This document shows, piece after piece, positions 6,364 to 17,783 of a stretch of 43,333 nucleotides of DNA. The first letter of the stretch is position 1. The number at the start of each line of letters is the position of its first letter. The notes under the pieces were generated by a model. That model searched no databases. It was not told the origin of the DNA and was given only the letters and a program-made list of their open reading frames with translations. The stretch lies in IMG/VR virus record IMGVR_UViG_3300020042_006880, positions 1-43,333 of that record. The stretch is one strand, 5' to 3'. Both the position numbers and the translations under genes were made by a program. The DNA comes from a virus. Its lineage: Duplodnaviria; Caudoviricetes.

Positions 6364-6993
6364 ATGCCAAGAGGACATTACGACAGAGACACCGCTGCCA
6401 AAAAGCGAAGAAAACCGTTTGACGAAATCACCGTCGGTAAGATGAGTGTGGTAGTCAACCCCATGCAGGAAAAGTCGCTGACGTCGCGGCAAGAAAAGTT
6501 TTGCAAACTCTACGCCACTGAAAACTACACACAGACGCAGTGTGTTTTGATGTCAGGATACTCCACGAATATCCGTGCGGCCTATCAACAGGCAAGCAAA
6601 CTGCTTGACGGAAAAAGCTATCCACACGTTGTAGAGCGCATCAGGGAGCTACGACAAGAGCTTGTAGGCCACTATGAGGTTACGTTTGACAACCATGTAC
6701 GACGCATGGCAGAAATCAGGGATGCCGCGTTAGCCTCTGGAAACTTTGCGTCTGCCGTTGCTGCTGAAAAAGCGAGGGGTCAGGCTGCTGGATTGTACAT
6801 TACTCGTCAAGAAATCTTGGTCGGCAAGATTGACCAGATGTCTAAGGACGAAGTCATGGCTGAAATTAATAGAATCATGAGTGAGTACCCTATTTTAATA
6901 GAGGCGACGGCACCTACAATAGACATGGAAGAGTTGAATGAACGAAGCTCAGTTGTGGAACAAGTTAAAGAAAAGCACAGAAAACAGGGTTGA
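6364..6993 (+). CDS. terS: terminase small subunit
   Basis: 'LTSRQEKFCKLY...SGYS...ASKLL...V..RI.EL' HTH, 'AVAAEKARG..AGLY'; upstream of terL. Confidence 0.85.
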   Translation: MPRGHYDRDTAAKKRRKPFDEITVGKMSVVVNPMQEKSLTSRQEKFCKLYATENYTQTQCVLMSGYSTNIRAAYQQASKLLDGKSYPHVVERIRELRQELVGHYEVTFDNHVRRMAEIRDAALASGNFASAVAAEKARGQAAGLYITRQEILVGKIDQMSKDEVMAEINRIMSEYPILIEATAPTIDMEELNERSSVVEQVKEKHRKQG

Positions 6994-7351: not shown

Positions 7352-7383
7352 CCACTGATAATCTTCCTGTCGTCAAATCATCT

Positions 7384-7415
7384 TCTATTCGTCATCTATT
7401 CGTCATCTATTCGTC
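7384..7415. repeat. 11-bp tandem repeat TCTATTCGTCA x3
   Basis: read directly; another copy near 7899-7908. Confidence 0.9.
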
Positions 7416-7428
7416 GTGGCAGCTATGC

Positions 7429-7456
7429 TTGTCATCCATGGCTCATGTGCCATTAT
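7429..7456 (+). promoter_or_regulatory. sigma70-like promoter
   Basis: TTGTCA-N16-CATTAT. Confidence 0.65.
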
Positions 7457-7492
7457 GTATTTGTGCATAGGGCACACCACAAGGAGTCGACG

Positions 7493-7747
7493 ATGTTAAC
7501 AGCTATACCAACCAACCTCGGGCCGCAGGAAATCACCGCGTTGCTTGCTCAGTGCAAAGCACTTTATCCAGAAAGTTTTAATAGCCATGCACCAATCTCG
7601 GTGGTCAACTTCTCCCATTGGTACAATGGTTTTAAGTACACGGTCAGTGACGACGTTGCCGTGTACAATGTTGCCACCGACAACGGTGCCGCCGAGGTCT
7701 ACGTGTTTGCTTTAGGCGACGACCTAATTGCAGCGTTTGACATCTAA
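7493..7747 (+). CDS. small acidic hypothetical protein, monocistronic
   Basis: AAGGAG RBS, own promoter and hairpin. Confidence 0.8.
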   Translation: MLTAIPTNLGPQEITALLAQCKALYPESFNSHAPISVVNFSHWYNGFKYTVSDDVAVYNVATDNGAAEVYVFALGDDLIAAFDI

Positions 7748-7750
7748 CAA

Positions 7751-7795
7751 CTAACCAAGGCTCTAGGAGCGCAAACCTCTTGGAGCCTTGGTTAG
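7751..7795 (+). terminator. hairpin/terminator
   Basis: 13-bp stem CTAACCAAGGCTC/GAGCCTTGGTTAG; no U-tract. Confidence 0.6.
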
Positions 7796-7849
7796 AGAAT
7801 TAAAATTCCTTGGAGCCTTGGTTGAAGAATTCTAAATTCCTTGGAGCCT
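7779..7849. repeat. 30-31-bp direct repeat, core CTTGGAGCCT x3
   Basis: CTTGGAGCCTTGGTT..AGAATT..AAATTC units read directly. Confidence 0.85.
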
Positions 7850-7938
7850 GACCTCGACGAATTGAATATCTATATGTCCAGTCATCCTCTAATCATCATC
7901 TATTCGTCGCCAAGTCTATCCTCTTTTCCAAATCCACC

Positions 7939-8035
7939 TGCCGCAGGGGCAGTCTGTTGCCGCAGGGGCAGTTGACTGCCGTATACGTAAGGTTTGCAGT
8001 TTGCACAAATGCAAACGGACTTTGCACAAATGCAA
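7939..8035. repeat. two pairs of short direct repeats
   Basis: TGCCGCAGGGGCAGT x2 (7939, 7958) and TTTGCACAAATGCAA x2 (8000, 8021). Confidence 0.85.
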
Positions 8036-8122
8036 GCAAATAGGCGTTGTGCTTACGTTGGGTAAAGGTGGTAATGTTTGGGGGTAGGCAACAACGCCTA
8101 CCTTAAAACAAGGGTTACTAAA

Positions 8123-8635
8123 ATGGCTACTACCAACACAAGCACCAATACCAAAGGCGTAACACTAGCTAAAAGCGCCGCCTTGCCTGTTATTGCCAAG
8201 GCAACCCCAACGGCAACCCAAACGGCCCCAAGCGCCGCGCAAGCGTTTAGTTTTGCCAATGGCGCGCCTGTTACCTTTAACAGCCTACGTGCATGGTGCA
8301 ATGCCAACGCGGGTGGTATTGCCCCCGTTAACTTGGCAAGGGTTGCCGTTAACGTTTTGCCAAACGTTAACGCACAATGGCAAGCGCAAGGGTTGCGCGG
8401 GCCTGTACCATTTGGGTACCAAGGCAACCCACTAGGGCAACGTGCAACGTTGTTTAACATTGCACTAACAAGCGCAACGCTTGCTACGTACTTTGCCACT
8501 TGCGCTAAAAGCCCAACAACCAAGTGCGAAACAACAGGCAACCCCAACGTGTTAACAGCGTTGCTAAACGGCGGGTTTACACCTAGCGCTAAAACATGGG
8601 GCACCCCGTTTGTTACCCTTACCGTAATGGCCTAA
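8123..8635 (+). CDS. 170-aa Ala/Thr/Asn-rich protein with no Asp and one Glu
   Basis: RBS AAGGGT, ATG 8123, TAA 8635, terminator follows. Confidence 0.8.
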   Translation: MATTNTSTNTKGVTLAKSAALPVIAKATPTATQTAPSAAQAFSFANGAPVTFNSLRAWCNANAGGIAPVNLARVAVNVLPNVNAQWQAQGLRGPVPFGYQGNPLGQRATLFNIALTSATLATYFATCAKSPTTKCETTGNPNVLTALLNGGFTPSAKTWGTPFVTLTVMA

Positions 8636-8653
8636 CCACCCCGCAACCAAGGC

Positions 8654-8684
8654 AACCCCATTGTGCAATGCACAATGGGGTTTT
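8654..8684 (+). terminator. intrinsic terminator / perfect inverted repeat
   Basis: AACCCCATTGTGCA-A-TGCACAATGGGGTT then TT. Confidence 0.8.
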
Positions 8685-8710
8685 GTGCGTTGCACAATAA
8701 TGTTAGGCAA

Positions 8711-8852
8711 ACGCATGGCTACTAGGCAACCTATGCGCAACGCATGGCTACTAGGCAACCTATGCGCAACGCATGGCTACTAGGCAACCTATGCGCAACG
8801 CATGGCTACTAGGCAACCTATGCGCAACGCATGGCTACTAGGCAACCTATGC
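8711..8852. repeat. perfect 29-bp tandem repeat x4.9
   Basis: ACGCATGGCTACTAGGCAACCTATGCGCA at 8711, 8740, 8769, 8798, 8827. Confidence 0.97.
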
Positions 8853-9009
8853 AAGGTACCCTTGGGGTAGTTTGCTTACGCAACGGCATCCGCGGTTTTT
8901 GCGCCCCCCCTTTCTCACCGTGGTGCCAGCGATTCACCCTTTACCAAGTTTTTTACAGTTCGTCGACAGTTTTCAAAAATTATCGGCCCCTTTTCCCTAT
9001 TAGGCGGAT

Positions 9010-9113
9010 TAAGGTACCCTATCCACCCCCGTATTCGAATAAAATTGGTTAAGGTACCCTGTTCACCCCTGTATTCGAATAAATTCATGTAAGGTACCCC
9101 GTTGCCCCCTATA
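9010..9113. repeat. 40-bp imperfect tandem repeat x2.6 upstream of terL
   Basis: AAGGTACCC at 9011, 9051, 9091; GTATTCGAATAAA twice. Confidence 0.9.
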
Positions 9114-9148
9114 TGGATTTTTGTTATGTGTTGCATGGAGATTGCCTT

Positions 9149-10624
9149 ATGCACCAAGTAACGATGCCCCCGAATGCTATGCCCGACGAGGTCGCCAAGC
9201 GGTTGGCTAAGTTGTTAAAGCGTGGTGCAAGTTTAACGTTAACTGAAAAGGCTAAAGACAGTTTTTTAGATTTTGTTAAGTTTGTATGGCCCGGATTCAT
9301 CGCTGGTAGACACCATAAGATTGTAGCCCAGAAGTTTGAAGATATAGCCAATGGCAAAATAAAGCGGTTGATAATCAACATGCCGCCGCGCCATACGAAA
9401 TCTGAATTTGCAAGTTACTTGTTCCCTGCTTGGATGATAGGTAGACGCCCCGATTTAAAGATTATGCAAGCAACCCATACCGCTGACCTTAGTATTCGGT
9501 TTGGGCGTAAAGTTAAGAACCTTATGGAAACTGAAGAGTACCAGAAGGTGTTCGGGGTTAAGTTGCGTAGTGATAGTAAGGCTGCGTACAGATGGGAAAC
9601 TGATGGTGGCGGTGAGTATTACGCTGCGGGTGTTGGCGGTAATATCGCGGGCCGTGGTGCGGATTTGTTTATTATTGATGACCCCCACTCCGAGCAGGAT
9701 GCAATGAGCCCCGCTGCTTTGGAGGGTGCATGGGAATGGTACCAAGGTGGTCCGCGCCAACGGCTCCAGCCGGGAGGTGCGATTGTTTTGGTTATGACTC
9801 GTTGGTCCGAGTTGGACTTAACCGCAAAGTTACTTAAGCAGAGTGCTATGGATATCAAAGCTGATAAGTGGGAAATGATTGAGTTCCCCGCTATATTGGA
9901 AAGTGGCAAGCCCCTGTGGCCTGAGTATTGGAAATTGGAGGAGTTAGAAAGTGTAAAGGCCAGTATCCAACTGCAAAAGTGGCAAGCGCAATATATGCAG
10001 CAGCCGACCGCCGATATGAGCAGTATTATCAAGCGTAGTTGGTGGAATATATGGACTAAGGAAAAGATACCCAAGTTGCAGTATGTGATGCAAACATACG
10101 ATACTGCTTTTTTGAAAAGCCAGACCGCCGATTTTAGTGCGATACAAACGTGGGGTGTGTTTTACCCAGAAGAAGATAAATCGGCCAATGTGATATTACT
10201 GGATGCCAAAAAGGGCAGGTGGGAATTTCCTGAGCTAAAACGTATTGCCTTGGAAGAATATCAGTAATGGGAACCCGACACTGTCTTGGTTGAAAGTAAG
10301 GCGGCGGGTTTGCCTTTGACTCAAGAGTTACGGTCAATGGGCATACCTGTGGTGAACTTTAGCCCAAGTAGAGGTAATGATAAGATAAGTAGAGTGAATG
10401 CTGTAGCCCCGTTATTTGAGAGTGGTATGGTTTGGGCACCCGAATCCAGTTGGGCCGAGGAAGTAATTGAAGAGTGCGCGGCCTTTCCATTTGGCGAGCA
10501 TGATGATATGGTTGACGCCATGACGCAAGCATTGATGCGTTTTCGGCAGGGCGGGTTCATTACACATCCGGAAGACTACGTTGATGATAGCGTAGGACTA
10601 CCACAGAGTAGGGTATATTACTGA
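9149..10624 (+). CDS. terL: terminase large subunit, interrupted by in-frame TAA at 10265-10267
   Basis: 'INMPPRHTKS' Walker A region, 'FIIDDP' Walker B, 'VMTRW', nuclease 'YDTA...DFSA', 'FPFGEHDDMVDA'; both ORFs share one frame. Confidence 0.93.
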
Positions 10625-13075: not shown

Positions 13076-14623
13076 ATGCCTCATGGTGGTGTAGAACATC
13101 TTTTAATGCAGCGTAGGCAATCGCGTGAAAACGCGGTGCGTAGTTATGCTGAAGGTGGCAGTGTACAGGCTACCGCGCAGAAGTTGCAAAGCATGGGGCG
13201 TAATGGCGACACCATATTAGCCCACATCAACCCAGAAGAAGCCGCGCTACTTAAGCGTATGGGCGGCAGTGGTAAAATTAACCCGAACACAGGGCTAATG
13301 AGCTTTGAACCCGGATATGGCGGTATGGGTGCAGGGGCGACTGGCAATTACGGGGGCGGGGCAGAAAAAGATAGGGACAGGCAAGGTCCAGGAAATGCCG
13401 GTACCTCTAACAATGTAGACAGAGATAGACAGGGTCCAGGAAATGCTGGCACCTCTGGTAACGTAGATAGGGACAGGCAAGGTCCAGGAAATGTCGGCAA
13501 AACCGACACAAGCGGTGGTCCAGGAAGTGCTCCCGGAGGTGACGGCTCTAAATCCGGCTCGCAAGGTCCGGGAGCGGGTACGGGTTCGATACCCTCTGGT
13601 GGTATTGCAGACCTCCCTGCTCCTACAGCGGTGGATGCAGCAAAAGAACGTGCAAAGTACATTGGGGCTACAAAAATTCCAGACAGTGTTAAATTAGCTT
13701 TTGATAGGGGAATGATTCCTATTGAAGGCGGGTTAGACGCTCAAGGCAACCCCTTAACTTCGCCAAAAAAGGCCCATGGAATTGCTCAGGTTAAGGATAC
13801 TACTGCTCCTGAAGCCGCAGCAGACGCAGGGTTAACGTGGGATAAAAATAAATATCTTACGGATACAGATTATAACTACAGTATTGGGCTAGCGTATTAT
13901 AACAAACTCGTAAACCAATTTGGAAACACATACGATGCCGCTGGTGCGTACAATGCTGGTCCAGGAACATACAAAGCCTATCAGGCTGGGAAAAGATCTT
14001 TGCCTACAGAAACAGTGAATTACCAAGCAAACTTTCAAAAAGCAATGGCTGACCCTAACGCGGGTTTTACTATTCCTGACCCACAAGCAGCAGGAGTTTC
14101 TCCTACTGATCCATTAAAACCACTTTCTGCTACCAATGTACCAACAACGCCTGAGCCAAAGCTCGGCATGGTAGATCAATTTACTCGTGATCTTCCTGGA
14201 TATATTGGGAGCGCGTTAATCAGTTCGGTAGTGCCTCCAGTAGGGCTGTATAATTTAATAGCAGGTGGAACAAACCTTGTCACGGGGGAAAAGACTTTAC
14301 GTTCGACTGCGGACATGATTAATGATGCTTATTATGGTACAGGAACCGCAGCCCCTACAGATAGTAGCGTTATTGGTGGGTATGGTCCAAGTGGTGGTAA
14401 AATTACCAACACTGACCCAATGCAGACGTATAAAGAAATGTACGGTGGCAGGGATAAACCTTTGTTAGGGATTGAATCCCTTGACAGAAGTCCATTATTA
14501 CCTGAAATCGACCCTAGCGTACCGACTGCACCCCTGTTTAACTATGACTATTCTAAGTTTGGTATAAAAGGAAAACCGTTTACTGAGTACGACTATTCTA
14601 AATTTGGCATAAAAGGAGAGTAA
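13076..14623 (+). CDS. virion protein with lytic transglycosylase (SLT-like) domain
   Basis: 'IEGG', 'AHGIAQV', 'AAGAYNAGPG', 'ETVNY' SLT motifs. Confidence 0.8.
   Translation: MPHGGVEHLLMQRRQSRENAVRSYAEGGSVQATAQKLQSMGRNGDTILAHINPEEAALLKRMGGSGKINPNTGLMSFEPGYGGMGAGATGNYGGGAEKDRDRQGPGNAGTSNNVDRDRQGPGNAGTSGNVDRDRQGPGNVGKTDTSGGPGSAPGGDGSKSGSQGPGAGTGSIPSGGIADLPAPTAVDAAKERAKYIGATKIPDSVKLAFDRGMIPIEGGLDAQGNPLTSPKKAHGIAQVKDTTAPEAAADAGLTWDKNKYLTDTDYNYSIGLAYYNKLVNQFGNTYDAAGAYNAGPGTYKAYQAGKRSLPTETVNYQANFQKAMADPNAGFTIPDPQAAGVSPTDPLKPLSATNVPTTPEPKLGMVDQFTRDLPGYIGSALISSVVPPVGLYNLIAGGTNLVTGEKTLRSTADMINDAYYGTGTAAPTDSSVIGGYGPSGGKITNTDPMQTYKEMYGGRDKPLLGIESLDRSPLLPEIDPSVPTAPLFNYDYSKFGIKGKPFTEYDYSKFGIKGE
13370..13498 (+). 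repeat. 48-bp coding repeat x2.7 (DRDRQGPGNAGTS)
   Basis: three copies in protein and DNA. Confidence 0.9.
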
Positions 14624-14624
14624 A

Positions 14625-14795
14625 ATGGCTAAGACAAAAGACCCTTCGGTTATCACTAACCAACAGATCGTTAATCAGGGCAGTGTTCCTGTAGCACAGC
14701 CACAGGGCACAAGTGTTCCTAGCGCACCCGTAGGTAGACAAACTGCCCGTGGATTTGGTGCTATGTTGCGTCCGCAAAAGTTTCTTGTGCGGTAA
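14625..14795 (+). CDS. small virion-associated protein (56 aa)
   Basis: AAGGAG RBS; MAKTKDPS...ARGFGAMLRPQKFLVR, below ORF-track cutoff. Confidence 0.75.
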   Translation: MAKTKDPSVITNQQIVNQGSVPVAQPQGTSVPSAPVGRQTARGFGAMLRPQKFLVR

Positions 14796-14797
14796 GC

Positions 14798-15268
14798 ATG
14801 GATCCTTTTACGCTCATTGCCGGAGCCACAGCACTGTATAACGGCATTAAAGGTGCCGTTGATTCAGGGCATGAGATGTTGGATGTTGCAGAAAAGGTAG
14901 GAAACCTTTTTGCAAGAGTCGCTCAGATCACGCAGCTTACATCGGGCAACCGCAAAAAACGGTTGTTCCAGTCGCAAGGTGAGTACGAAGCCGAGGCGAT
15001 TAAGCTGTACACGCTGAAACAAAAGGCGCAACAGCTTCAGTTAGATACTCGCAATTTGTTTGTTGGGGCGTATGGATTAGCAGCGTGGTCTTCTATCCAA
15101 AAAGAAGTCACAGAAATGCGTAAGGAAGCCTTGCGCCAAGCTGCAATCGCTCAAAAAGAAGCTGAAGAACGCCGTGCCGAACTTATCCTAGGCGCGTGGA
15201 TGTTCTTGGGCGTCATTGTTATGGCTCTGGGTCTTGCTCTTTTTGTTTATCTGACGGCGCATAAATGA
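14798..15268 (+). CDS. coiled-coil protein with C-terminal transmembrane helix
   Basis: hydrophobic C-terminus. Confidence 0.8.
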   Translation: MDPFTLIAGATALYNGIKGAVDSGHEMLDVAEKVGNLFARVAQITQLTSGNRKKRLFQSQGEYEAEAIKLYTLKQKAQQLQLDTRNLFVGAYGLAAWSSIQKEVTEMRKEALRQAAIAQKEAEERRAELILGAWMFLGVIVMALGLALFVYLTAHK

Positions 15269-15447
15269 AATACTGGATAGCGGTTGCGTTTTTAATCTTA
15301 TCGGGGTGCGAGGACCGCTACCGATACCCGTGTCAAGACCCTGCTAATTGGGACGCACCTGAATGCAATCCTCCTATTTGCACCGCTTCTGGAACCTGTT
15401 CCGCAGACACCCTAAAAAGAAATCCATGCGGAGCCGTCGCAAGATGA
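15265..15447 (+). CDS. Cys-rich lipoprotein (possible o-spanin-like)
   Basis: lipobox LSGC, six Cys, ATGA overlaps. Confidence 0.75.
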   Translation: MKYWIAVAFLILSGCEDRYRYPCQDPANWDAPECNPPICTASGTCSADTLKRNPCGAVAR

Positions 15448-15698
15448 GGATTAAAGAAGACGAACTTCACGCCCTGCTCCAATTTATAATTGGTGTCAGT
15501 TTGTGCCTAACGTTGACAGGCACCGTGTTTGCCGTGTTGTATAGTTTGATTTTTGTGGTGCAGCCGATTGACGGGCAAGCACCGAATGATCAGGAATTTT
15601 TCAAGTTAATCGCGCCAATCGCAACGTTCCTCACAGGTACTTTATCCGGTATCATGTTAGGTTCTAAATCCACCGGAGGAAAAGATGGATCTTCTTAA
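15444..15698 (+). CDS. two-TM membrane protein
   Basis: ATGA overlap; two hydrophobic segments. Confidence 0.75.
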   Translation: MRIKEDELHALLQFIIGVSLCLTLTGTVFAVLYSLIFVVQPIDGQAPNDQEFFKLIAPIATFLTGTLSGIMLGSKSTGGKDGSS

Positions 15699-16212
15699 AA
15701 CATTCGGACCGTTACTCGGGTCTGTAGCACCAAGCATCGCTACGGCTCTAGGGGGACCGTTGGCTGGCATGGCAACAAAAGCATTGTCACAAGCCTTGCT
15801 TGGAAATGAAGACGGCTCTGAAGACGATTTGCAGGACGCTCTACGCGCTGCCTCGCCTGAGCAACTGGCAGCAGTCAAAAAAATCGATGCGGATTTCAAA
15901 GTACAAATGAAAAGTCTCGACATTGATTTAGAGGCACTTGCCGTAGATGATCGTAAGTCTGCCCGTGATATGCAGAAGGAAGTCAAGGATTGGATTCCAC
16001 GGGCATTGGCGATAAGCGTAACACTAGGGTATTTTGGTATCATTGCGTATGTCTTAGCCGTCGGGTTGCCGCTTAACGGGTCGGAAGTGCTACTTATGCT
16101 GCTTGGCACTTTGTCGGCCGGATGGACAGGAGTCATGGCTTTCTATTTTGGAAGTTCTTCTGGTTCGCAGAAAAAAGATGCTATGATCTATAATTCTACC
16201 CCAAAAGAATAG
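15685..16212 (+). CDS. putative holin-like membrane protein
   Basis: 'AP.IATALGGPLAG', 'DRKSAR', two TMs, 'FYFGSS.GSQKKD'. Confidence 0.7.
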   Translation: MDLLKTFGPLLGSVAPSIATALGGPLAGMATKALSQALLGNEDGSEDDLQDALRAASPEQLAAVKKIDADFKVQMKSLDIDLEALAVDDRKSARDMQKEVKDWIPRALAISVTLGYFGIIAYVLAVGLPLNGSEVLLMLLGTLSAGWTGVMAFYFGSSSGSQKKDAMIYNSTPKE

Positions 16213-16220
16213 GTTTTTGC

Positions 16221-16421
16221 ATGGACGGACTTTACATTCTAGAAAATCTGCTTAAGACTGTGAAACAGCGGCGCGAAGTTGTGGTTGAAGCAATCACAGA
16301 GGGCTCAGTTCAAGACTTCGCTGCTTACCGACACCTCAGGGGAAAACTTGAGGGGTGGGATGAAATACAAACTGAACTGCGCTCTCTGCTAAAAAGGATG
16401 GATATAGATCAAGATGAGTAG
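16221..16421 (+). CDS. conserved small head-module protein
   Basis: 'G.VQDFAAYRHLRG' preceding GroES-like gene. Confidence 0.75.
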   Translation: MDGLYILENLLKTVKQRREVVVEAITEGSVQDFAAYRHLRGKLEGWDEIQTELRSLLKRMDIDQDE

Positions 16422-16881
16422 TTTGCTACTCCCTGAGCATTTGGCTCAGAAACTTGCAACCCCGTCAGAAGAATCAACGGTCTTGCAAAATGCCTACGTC
16501 AAGCCTGAAGAAGTAGTGCTTGATCCTTCCAAAATTGAAGCAAGTGTTTTGGAGCGGATGCCCAAGCCTACGGGATGGCGTGTTTTGATTTTGCCTTATA
16601 AGGGCACTGGAAAAACCAAAGGCGGTGTTCACCTAGCTGATGAAACAATTGAACGCAACTCTGTTGCGACAGTTGTCGGCTACGTGCTTGCCATTGGTCC
16701 GGATGCTTATAATGATAAGGCAAAGTTTCCAGCTGGACCTTGGTGTAAAAAAGGTGACTGGGTAATGATAGGCCGATACGCGGGTGCCCGTTTTAGAATT
16801 GAAGGCGGGGAAGTGCGTATTATCAACGATGATGAAGTCATCGCAACAATCATTGATCCATCAGACGTATTAAACGTTTGA
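16414..16881 (+). CDS. groES: GroES-like co-chaperonin
   Basis: 'PTGWRVLI', 'KTKGGV.L', 'VLAIGP', 'GDWV..GRYAG', 'IINDDEVIA'. Confidence 0.9.
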   Translation: MSSLLLPEHLAQKLATPSEESTVLQNAYVKPEEVVLDPSKIEASVLERMPKPTGWRVLILPYKGTGKTKGGVHLADETIERNSVATVVGYVLAIGPDAYNDKAKFPAGPWCKKGDWVMIGRYAGARFRIEGGEVRIINDDEVIATIIDPSDVLNV

Positions 16882-16904
16882 GGTCAGTGCAATAGGAGCT
16901 CAGC

Positions 16905-17783
16905 ATGGCTGAAGAGAAAAACATCGATATCGGTGGCGACGAACAAGAAATTGAAGTAGTCGTTCCTGAAGAAGAGTCTAGTAAGGGAAAACCTGCACCT
17001 AAAGAAACTGCTGTGGCAGCCGAAGGTTCAGATGAGGAACTCGCCGAGTATAGTGATGGCGTTAAAAAGCGTATTGATCGCCTTACTTTTAAGATGCGCG
17101 AATCTGAGCGGCGCGAACAGGCTGCGTTAGAACTTGCTAGAAGTTTTAAGGCTCAGGTTGACATGGCACAGCAACGTGCGCAAGTTCTTGATACAAGTCT
17201 TGTGAATGAGTATAACAGCAGGATCACTACTCAAGAGCAGATGGTCAATGATAAACTCAGACGTGCTATAGATCGTGGCGATATTGACGAGCAAATCTTA
17301 GCACAGCGGGCTATGGCTGAACTTGCTGTAGAAAAAGATAAAATTCGTACAGCAACGCGTTCTCGTGAGTCAGAAAACACATACGTAGCGCAACAGCCTA
17401 CGTATCAGGCTCCTCCTCAGAGGGCTACTCCCGACCCGAAAGCTGAAAACTGGGCAGAAAAAAATACGTGGTTTGGTGCAGACGAGCCAATGACTTTAAC
17501 TGCATTTAGTCACCATAAAGCCTTGGTTGAAAAGGAAGGGTTTGATCCTTCCGGTGACGATTATTATGAGGAACTGGATAAGCGTATGCGACGTGATTTT
17601 CCTCATAAGTTTCAAGGCAGGAACCCTCAGCAAACTGTTGCTTCTCCCCGTGGTAGTGTCCGTAGTGAAAACTCTAAAACGATTAAATTGACTTCTAGTC
17701 AGGTGGCTATTGCCAAACGTCTGGGAATCAGTATACAAGAGTACGCACGGCACGTTAAAATTCTTGGTGGTCAAAATGGTTGA
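16905..17783 (+). CDS. capsid scaffolding protein (putative)
   Basis: acidic N-terminus, coiled coil, C-terminal 'LTSSQVAIAKRLGIS..EYA'; position before capsid. Confidence 0.75.
   Translation: MAEEKNIDIGGDEQEIEVVVPEEESSKGKPAPKETAVAAEGSDEELAEYSDGVKKRIDRLTFKMRESERREQAALELARSFKAQVDMAQQRAQVLDTSLVNEYNSRITTQEQMVNDKLRRAIDRGDIDEQILAQRAMAELAVEKDKIRTATRSRESENTYVAQQPTYQAPPQRATPDPKAENWAEKNTWFGADEPMTLTAFSHHKALVEKEGFDPSGDDYYEELDKRMRRDFPHKFQGRNPQQTVASPRGSVRSENSKTIKLTSSQVAIAKRLGISIQEYARHVKILGGQNG

Follow-up and report, generated by a model that had tools for sequence, protein, structure and literature searches.

A phage gene unit free of TC and GA dinucleotides, associated with predicted glycosylation of hydroxymethyluracil

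The 43.3-kb window (the whole stretch of phage DNA analysed here) contains an island, at 8020..8888, from which the dinucleotide TC and its complement GA have been purged almost completely; there is one such island per genome. Islands were seen only in phages with a gene cluster for predicted hydroxymethyluracil (hmU) synthesis and a glycosyltransferase, wherever the cluster region was covered. What the island avoids is likely to be the phage's own modification. On balance, we favour the reading that the phage glycosylates hmU at TC and that this unit is kept unmodified for the host RNA polymerase to read.

The TC/GA-free island in the window

Direct counting over 8020-8888 gave no TC and one GA (at 8528), the same figures that the earlier note on this DNA had obtained by manual scanning. 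Base counts predict 57 GA and 50 TC in this stretch, and the window's own rate predicts 87 GA/TC (P(<=1) ~1e-38). The earlier note had considered that similar gaps might occur elsewhere in the window by chance; the longest GA/TC-free gaps (510 and 361 bp) are the two halves of the island itself, and the third is only 66 bp. As had also been described, the purge covers leader, gene, terminator and tandem repeat alike, and the non-coding part (356 bases) contains no GA/TC where 36 are expected. When the island protein was re-drawn with the codon usage of the window, the resulting genes contained 36.7 ± 4.8 GA/TC, with a minimum of 18 in 20,000 draws; protein composition therefore does not explain the purge, which bears out the earlier claim. 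The left edge can be extended to 7975 if one extra GA is allowed, and the island is also somewhat low in AT (O/E 0.6) and CAG/CTG.

All features of the unit lie on the + strand. It opens with a leader (8020..8122) in which a promoter is presumed from position only, as no sigma-70 consensus site was called within it. At 8110-8114, the ribosome-binding-like sequence AAGGG is a GA-free form of the Shine-Dalgarno motif. The gene itself (8123..8635) is followed by a terminator-like hairpin (8643..8693; the segment 8636-8705 folds at -29.9 kcal/mol, z -3.5) and by about five copies of a 29-bp tandem repeat (8710..8854), also free of TC/GA. Just beyond the island lies a C-tract (8904..8910), which comparison with relatives shows to be the end point of many of their islands, and then, outside the island and before the terminase large subunit gene (terL), three AAGGTACC repeats at 40-bp spacing (9010..9114) that form a candidate terminase site. 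The terminase small subunit gene lies further upstream (6364..6993, +; phrog_51, E 7e-15). In this record, terL (9113..10624, +) is annotated as two ORFs (9113-10267 and 10286-10624), broken by a stop ending at 10267. Contigs from runs X1-X3 carry a different base at this stop, at full depth; a rare variant or an assembly error may explain the split.

The encoded protein (170 aa) is basic, with a disordered N-terminus of about 40 aa. It contains no Asp and a single Glu, whereas these two residues make up 10.4% of the other ORFs in the window, and all eight of its Ser codons are AGY. No match was found in Pfam, PHROGs, the ESM Atlas or Foldseek, nor was the gene found in any cultured phage. Its structure model (pLDDT 73) gave many matches to winged-helix or RRE domains, all weak (best Z 4.9, rmsd 3.4, 88 aligned residues), and would fit a winged-helix-like regulator only loosely.

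The window belongs to the HTVC023P type: its terL is 61-66% identical to those of HTVC027P and 023Pt_psg01, and gene families are shared. Public sequencing runs that match it come from fresh and drinking water. The record is a 74%-complete viral genome that does not include the modification-cluster region.

Homologs occur in a purged and a normal state

The earlier note had suggested the same scan between terS and terL in related phages; among homologous copies of the gene, the same dinucleotide proved to be purged in 69 of 158. Profile searches yielded 164 distinct copies of the gene on marine and freshwater contigs. We classed only the 158 copies of at least 360 nt, calling a copy TC/GA-free at an O/E of <=0.12; 69 were free, 7 intermediate and 82 normal (38, 5 and 33 after collapsing at 90% identity). 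The purged dinucleotide is always TC/GA, across gene GC contents of 33-62%. Usually a normal copy comes first and a purged one follows, adjoining terL, while the window has the purged copy alone. The 58 islands uncut by contig ends measure 570-913 bp; they begin upstream of the gene and stop shortly after the hairpin. Every readable stop codon of the purged genes is TAA or TAG (67/67).

In the protein tree, free copies sit on long branches, and well-supported branches require at least six changes of the free state, which has therefore been gained or lost repeatedly. The gene can also vary greatly between close relatives. Between G067 (L547:17250-18420) and G069, whose terL genes are near-identical, 136 aligned sites differ over 1.17 kb, almost all of them within the unit and few past the C-tract; the gene here forms a hypervariable cassette, and its island is half eroded. 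Another relative, G054, has a 972-bp island upstream of terL (C1:42919-43890) whose gene is too diverged for the family profile.

Selection keeps TC and GA out of the unit

Twin genes within one genome provide a built-in control. Three twin pairs, with nucleotide identities of 59-63%, retained TC at 1/28, 0/30 and 0/31 sites and GA at 0/9, 0/9 and 0/7; retention of other steps was roughly 15-70%. TC was replaced by TT, CC, GC, TA, TG, AG and others, and TCN serine codons became AGY or alanine codons. Three close homologs of the window gene have accumulated 71, 37 and 70 substitutions without creating a single TC/GA, against null means of 12.4, 6.1 and 11.0 (P <=0.0006). Ongoing selection thus keeps TC/GA out of the unit. 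The purge affects both strands, in coding and flanking DNA. Residual sites on the coding strand of islands are mostly GA (80, vs 17 TC), an excess that fits Asp/Glu codons, which cannot be recoded; they show no clean sub-motif, apart from some excess in GTC context.

Local hypermutation by a TC-specific cytosine deaminase would also erase TC, and both the raised TT and AA in the island (O/E 1.6 and 1.4) and some Asp to Asn changes, which fit G to A, point that way. However, lost TC became TT at only 6/27, 3/30 and 7/31 sites, many changes altered the T, and serine swapped codon family. The loss of TC by so many routes therefore indicates selection rather than deamination, and this replacement spectrum largely refutes the deaminase reading, to which we give hardly any weight.

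Islands occur with a predicted thymidine-modification cluster

All relatives with the island gene and a visible replication module encode, before polA, a cluster of a PF18723 gene, a glycosyltransferase, a thymidylate-synthase-like protein and one more conserved gene. The thymidylate-synthase-like protein shares 42% identity and synteny with PaMx11 gp51, and its closest relatives are dUMP hydroxymethylases. It has Asn where CMP hydroxymethylase has Asp, at what we take to be the position of uracil specificity. From this identity, synteny and Asn, the synthase of the relatives is predicted to make hmU. PF18723 (aGPT-Pplase1 / HMUDK_hel) scored over the cut-off in 16 of 38 records, and in 10 of the 11 IMG/VR records that are at least 90% complete; the exception lacks the island gene family. 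The glycosyltransferase, between PF18723 and the synthase, belongs to one of two GT-B types or is a TET-associated TAGT (PF20691, found in G001 and G067). We found neither GT-B type in cultured phages. The near-twin G036, with 86-91% identity to the window, carries the island and polA, and a partial hydroxymethylase match lies at its contig end.

Some further assignments were sought or discarded. The amino-acid:DNA transferase PF18724 was over the cut-off in 0/17 records, with two weak matches within the PF18723 gene, while the positive control PaMx11 gp46 scored 1.6e-27. The P-loop 5-hmdU DNA kinase PF18748 was likewise found in 0/17, although with an insensitive model that gives PaMx11 gp49 only an E of 0.002. 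The idea that PF18723 is a DNA kinase was dropped, as the PF18723 gene matches PaMx11 gp50 and not the P-loop protein gp49. An absence of glycosyltransferase from G001 was also wrong, as this genome carries TAGT. Homology between the island protein and the conserved gene before PF18723 found no support (hhalign probability <=1%).

Of 37 terL-bearing genomes, 19 have an island, 10 have the cluster but no island, and 8 have neither; one of the 19 islands is partial, and two of these genomes, the window among them, are fragments that do not include the cluster region. The eight (G031, G064, G065, G066, G068 and W01-W03, the last three scanned for islands over their first 50 kb) have no cluster, gene family or island. 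Two of them, G064 and G065, lie inside the window's own clade, with terL identities of 76-78% that place them as near as the island-bearing G003. Because these eight fall in few clades (two changes on the tree), they weigh less as a control than their number suggests. The counts leave out, as uninformative, G012, G051 and the fetched part of G056 (all three without the terL region), G045, and those 13 of the 19 helicase-picked records that lack terL.

The island state itself changes about seven times on the terL tree, and 10 of the 29 terL-bearing relatives in cluster-bearing clades are island-less; the cluster therefore seems to be needed but not sufficient. Glycosyltransferase type does not predict the island, as G002, G004 and G020 share the type of G003. 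In these exceptions, enzyme level, sequence context or host polymerase may differ, or a host factor may be decisive. In several island-less relatives, the terL-adjacent copy has regained TC on the sense strand while remaining GA-poor, which looks like relaxed selection, and no other avoided motif of 2-4 bases was found in the island-less relatives. Genome-wide, TC is lowered in many cluster-bearing phages (O/E 0.72-0.93 in 13 of 14, 1.09 in G001), but TC avoidance in polA codons did not differ between groups. The G002 record (75,636 bp) repeats about 19 kb of itself, giving a genome of about 57 kb. In the cluster-less L072 (DSL-LC04), 3 kb upstream of terL (14550-17560) contain 20 AGA/TCT where 91 are expected.

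Purged units in unrelated lineages

Selecting independent lineages by the glycosyltransferase alone gave four long records with the full cluster (G039-G042), none of which has a terL or portal match to the HTVC023P-type family or a copy of the island gene. G040 and G041 nevertheless contain purged units of 764 bp (4 GA/TC) and 866 bp (7 GA/TC), each with a hairpin and one small basic gene without Asp or Glu. The cargo differs from that of the window; a model of the G040 protein (pLDDT 58) gave weak MarR-like matches (best Z 5.4, rmsd 2.6, 62 aligned). Shorter purged segments also occur: four of 132-209 bp in G039, one weak segment of 86 bp in G042 and five additional ones of 145-249 bp in G040. 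The G040 segments (C1, 1410-1602, 11028-11240, 26144-26392, 36857-37001 and 44022-44240) have similar words rich in GGGGC/GCCCC, and several lie over gene starts, making them possible promoters or binding sites.

Three partial cluster loci gave one purged segment of 340 bp and two without any. Overall, G042, L309 and L313 have the cluster yet no clear island in the DNA covered. Where the glycosyltransferase occurs without the hydroxymethylase (three genomes and one locus), no purged unit was seen. No TC or TG island was seen in Ab20 and Pa-S, two hypermodified phages of the kinase type, and three cultured HTVC023P-like phages, covered over their first 50 kb, lacked any dinucleotide island. Homologs of the glycosyltransferase from giant-virus bins (L326-L363) are 32-37% identical and come without the hydroxymethylase; two of these loci, L339 and L340, contain stretches poor in GA, where other dinucleotides are depleted to the same extent.

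A proposed unit for reading by the host polymerase

The reading we favour would run as follows. The phage would replicate with hmU in place of T, and its glycosyltransferase would add a sugar to any hmU followed by C. A bulky sugar in the major groove would hinder the host RNA polymerase while plain hmU would not, so the island gene would be the first to be expressed. Its basic, winged-helix-like product may then bind DNA and help to start the programme on modified DNA, with the normal twin serving later, on fresh DNA not yet glycosylated. That the product acts as a boot factor, letting host machinery read or open glycosylated DNA, with the TC-free unit the sole host-readable part and the normal twin used later, is a more tentative proposal, which we put at somewhat under even chances.

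Several published observations are in line with parts of this scheme. The known marks derived from hmU occur at TG or TC (PMC6449724, PMC13458397), and a phage T-dioxygenase favours NTC (PMC13229309). Plain hmU raises transcription by E. coli RNA polymerase above that of normal DNA, while caged or phosphorylated hmU lowers it (PMC6457204). No RNA polymerase gene was seen in the annotations run. Counting against this reading, the neighbouring early genes are rich in TC, and therefore modified or newly made DNA must be read later. The island-less relatives in cluster-bearing clades (10/29) also speak against it, as do the polA codons, the leader with no sigma-70 call, the weak fold matches, and the lack of an island in Ab20 and Pa-S and of a clear one in G042, L309 and L313.

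The earlier note had mainly proposed that the island is a stealth segment against host defences directed at GA. This received no direct support, and all eight cluster-less relatives are without an island; the ten relatives that have the cluster and no island leave it some likelihood. Its alternative, that the island stays free of a mark placed by the phage elsewhere, fits the comparative data, except that such a mark would more likely fall on the T of TC than on GA. A broader version of the first idea, in which a host factor (a defence nuclease, toxin or reader) targets TC/GA in the DNA that enters or is expressed first and the purged gene is a counter-defence, seems unlikely to us. Such a factor might perhaps recognise modified TC, with the gene needed only in hosts that have it. 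This would suit an island that comes and goes while the cluster persists (10/29 without), free copies on long branches, and a gene that evolves as fast as arms-race genes, as the G067-G069 comparison illustrates. It sits poorly with the same dinucleotide being purged in marine, freshwater and unrelated phages, only where the cluster is present, and with the absence of islands from the cluster-less relatives (0/8). A specific form, escape from CmdT, which marks GA in single-stranded RNA (PMC11618068), does not fit: it would purge GA from the mRNA strand only, whereas both strands and the flanks are purged and residual sense GA exceeds TC, the reverse of the prediction.

The phage's own modification might also be avoided for packaging, DNA entry or replication rather than for transcription. 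We judge this slightly less likely still, even though the HTVC023P-type island is always found directly before terL, with its end at the conserved C-tract and the AAGGTACC repeats beyond it, and although the short purged segments of G039 and G040 are not whole genes. The assembled Logan contigs gave no signal of a genome end. The purge ends before those repeats, covers the leader, the entire coding sequence and the hairpin, and costs the protein nearly all its Asp and Glu; moreover, G040 and G041 show the same gene-unit anatomy. Improbable, in our view, is a mark on another base, either the C of TC or the G of GA (7-deazaguanine-like). The TC/GA step is symmetric, and the sequence alone therefore cannot name the modified base. 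T4-type glucosyltransferases, which act on hydroxymethylcytosine, are among the ESM Atlas look-alikes of the glycosyltransferase. A DpdA with a strict GA motif is also known (PMC10484667). Against this stand the uracil-type Asn of the synthase and its similarity to dUMP hydroxymethylases above all; moreover, QueC was found in none of five records (two of them complete), and the longest GA/TC-free gap in the deazaguanine phage CAjan is 81 bp. We rejected 7-deazaguanine itself on the lack of QueC in those five records and of an island in CAjan.

Relation to known systems

What appears to be new is the dinucleotide-free gene unit; the modification genes have been described before, and the avoidance of motifs targeted by host enzymes offers a looser known parallel. 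Restriction-site avoidance, including that in the first-step-transfer DNA of T5, concerns host sites of 4-6 bp. As in T5, motifs are lost here by selection in a defined and, for this phage, presumably early region; unlike in T5, a whole dinucleotide is removed, at an amino-acid cost, and the loss tracks the phage's own enzymes. Ordinary restriction-site avoidance is also visible in the window, from which the 6-mers AAGCTT, GTGCAC, GCATGC and GCAGGC are missing. In vertebrate CpG islands, as proposed here, an unmodified stretch lies over a transcription start in a modified genome. However, CpG islands are target-rich and protected, while the phage island would stay unmarked through the absence of targets.

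Base J, a glucosyl-hmU of kinetoplastids tied to RNA polymerase II termination (PMC7055916), is the same kind of base as predicted here. In kinetoplastids, base J is put at chosen sites, whereas in these phages the unmarked site would be set by the sequence itself, and most relatives use a GT-B enzyme, with TAGT only in G001 and G067. Phages M6, ViI, phiW-14, PaMx11 and SH-Ab 15599 encode a dUMP hydroxymethylase and PF18723 homologs, like the relatives here, and the thymidine marks of the M6/ViI type are placed after replication, at TG/TC (PMC8989533, PMC6449724, PMC13458397). In the phages studied here, by contrast, no amino-acid:DNA transferase passed the cut-off and the insensitive kinase model detected no P-loop kinase; a glycosyltransferase takes their place. 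A cluster of TS, aG/PT-PPlase1, 5'-deoxynucleotidase and glucosyltransferase has been described in uncultivated HTVC023P-type pelagiphages (PMC9599517). That is the same phage group and the same cluster beside polA; protection from restriction is predicted there, and the chemistry is a prediction there too. The main text of PMC9599517 does not contain the word 'dinucleotide', and we found no purged unit or twin genes described there. More widely, a search of full-text articles, largely the main texts of open-access papers, turned up no account of a phage gene unit purged of a dinucleotide.

The islands suggest a simple answer to how a decorated phage without its own RNA polymerase gets its first gene read. 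According to PMC9599517, the HTVC023P-type group ranks with the most abundant phages of the ocean; as the pattern also recurs in unrelated lineages, it could be used to predict modification context and the first-expressed gene from assemblies. If the reading is correct, islands would reveal both for uncultured phages from sequence alone, and phages that sugar-coat TC would write their own epigenetic landscape into their sequence.

The left flank of the island (7353..7935, +) holds TC-dense repeats, at 7353-7420 and 7870-7935. Such repeats also adjoin the island position in L016 (8950-9100), where a 16-bp unit occurs about 10 times, and in L005 (2790-3180). GAGCTC, which has TC on both strands, is over-represented in the window. 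If TC is marked, the TC-dense repeats would be heavily modified patches beside an unmodified one.
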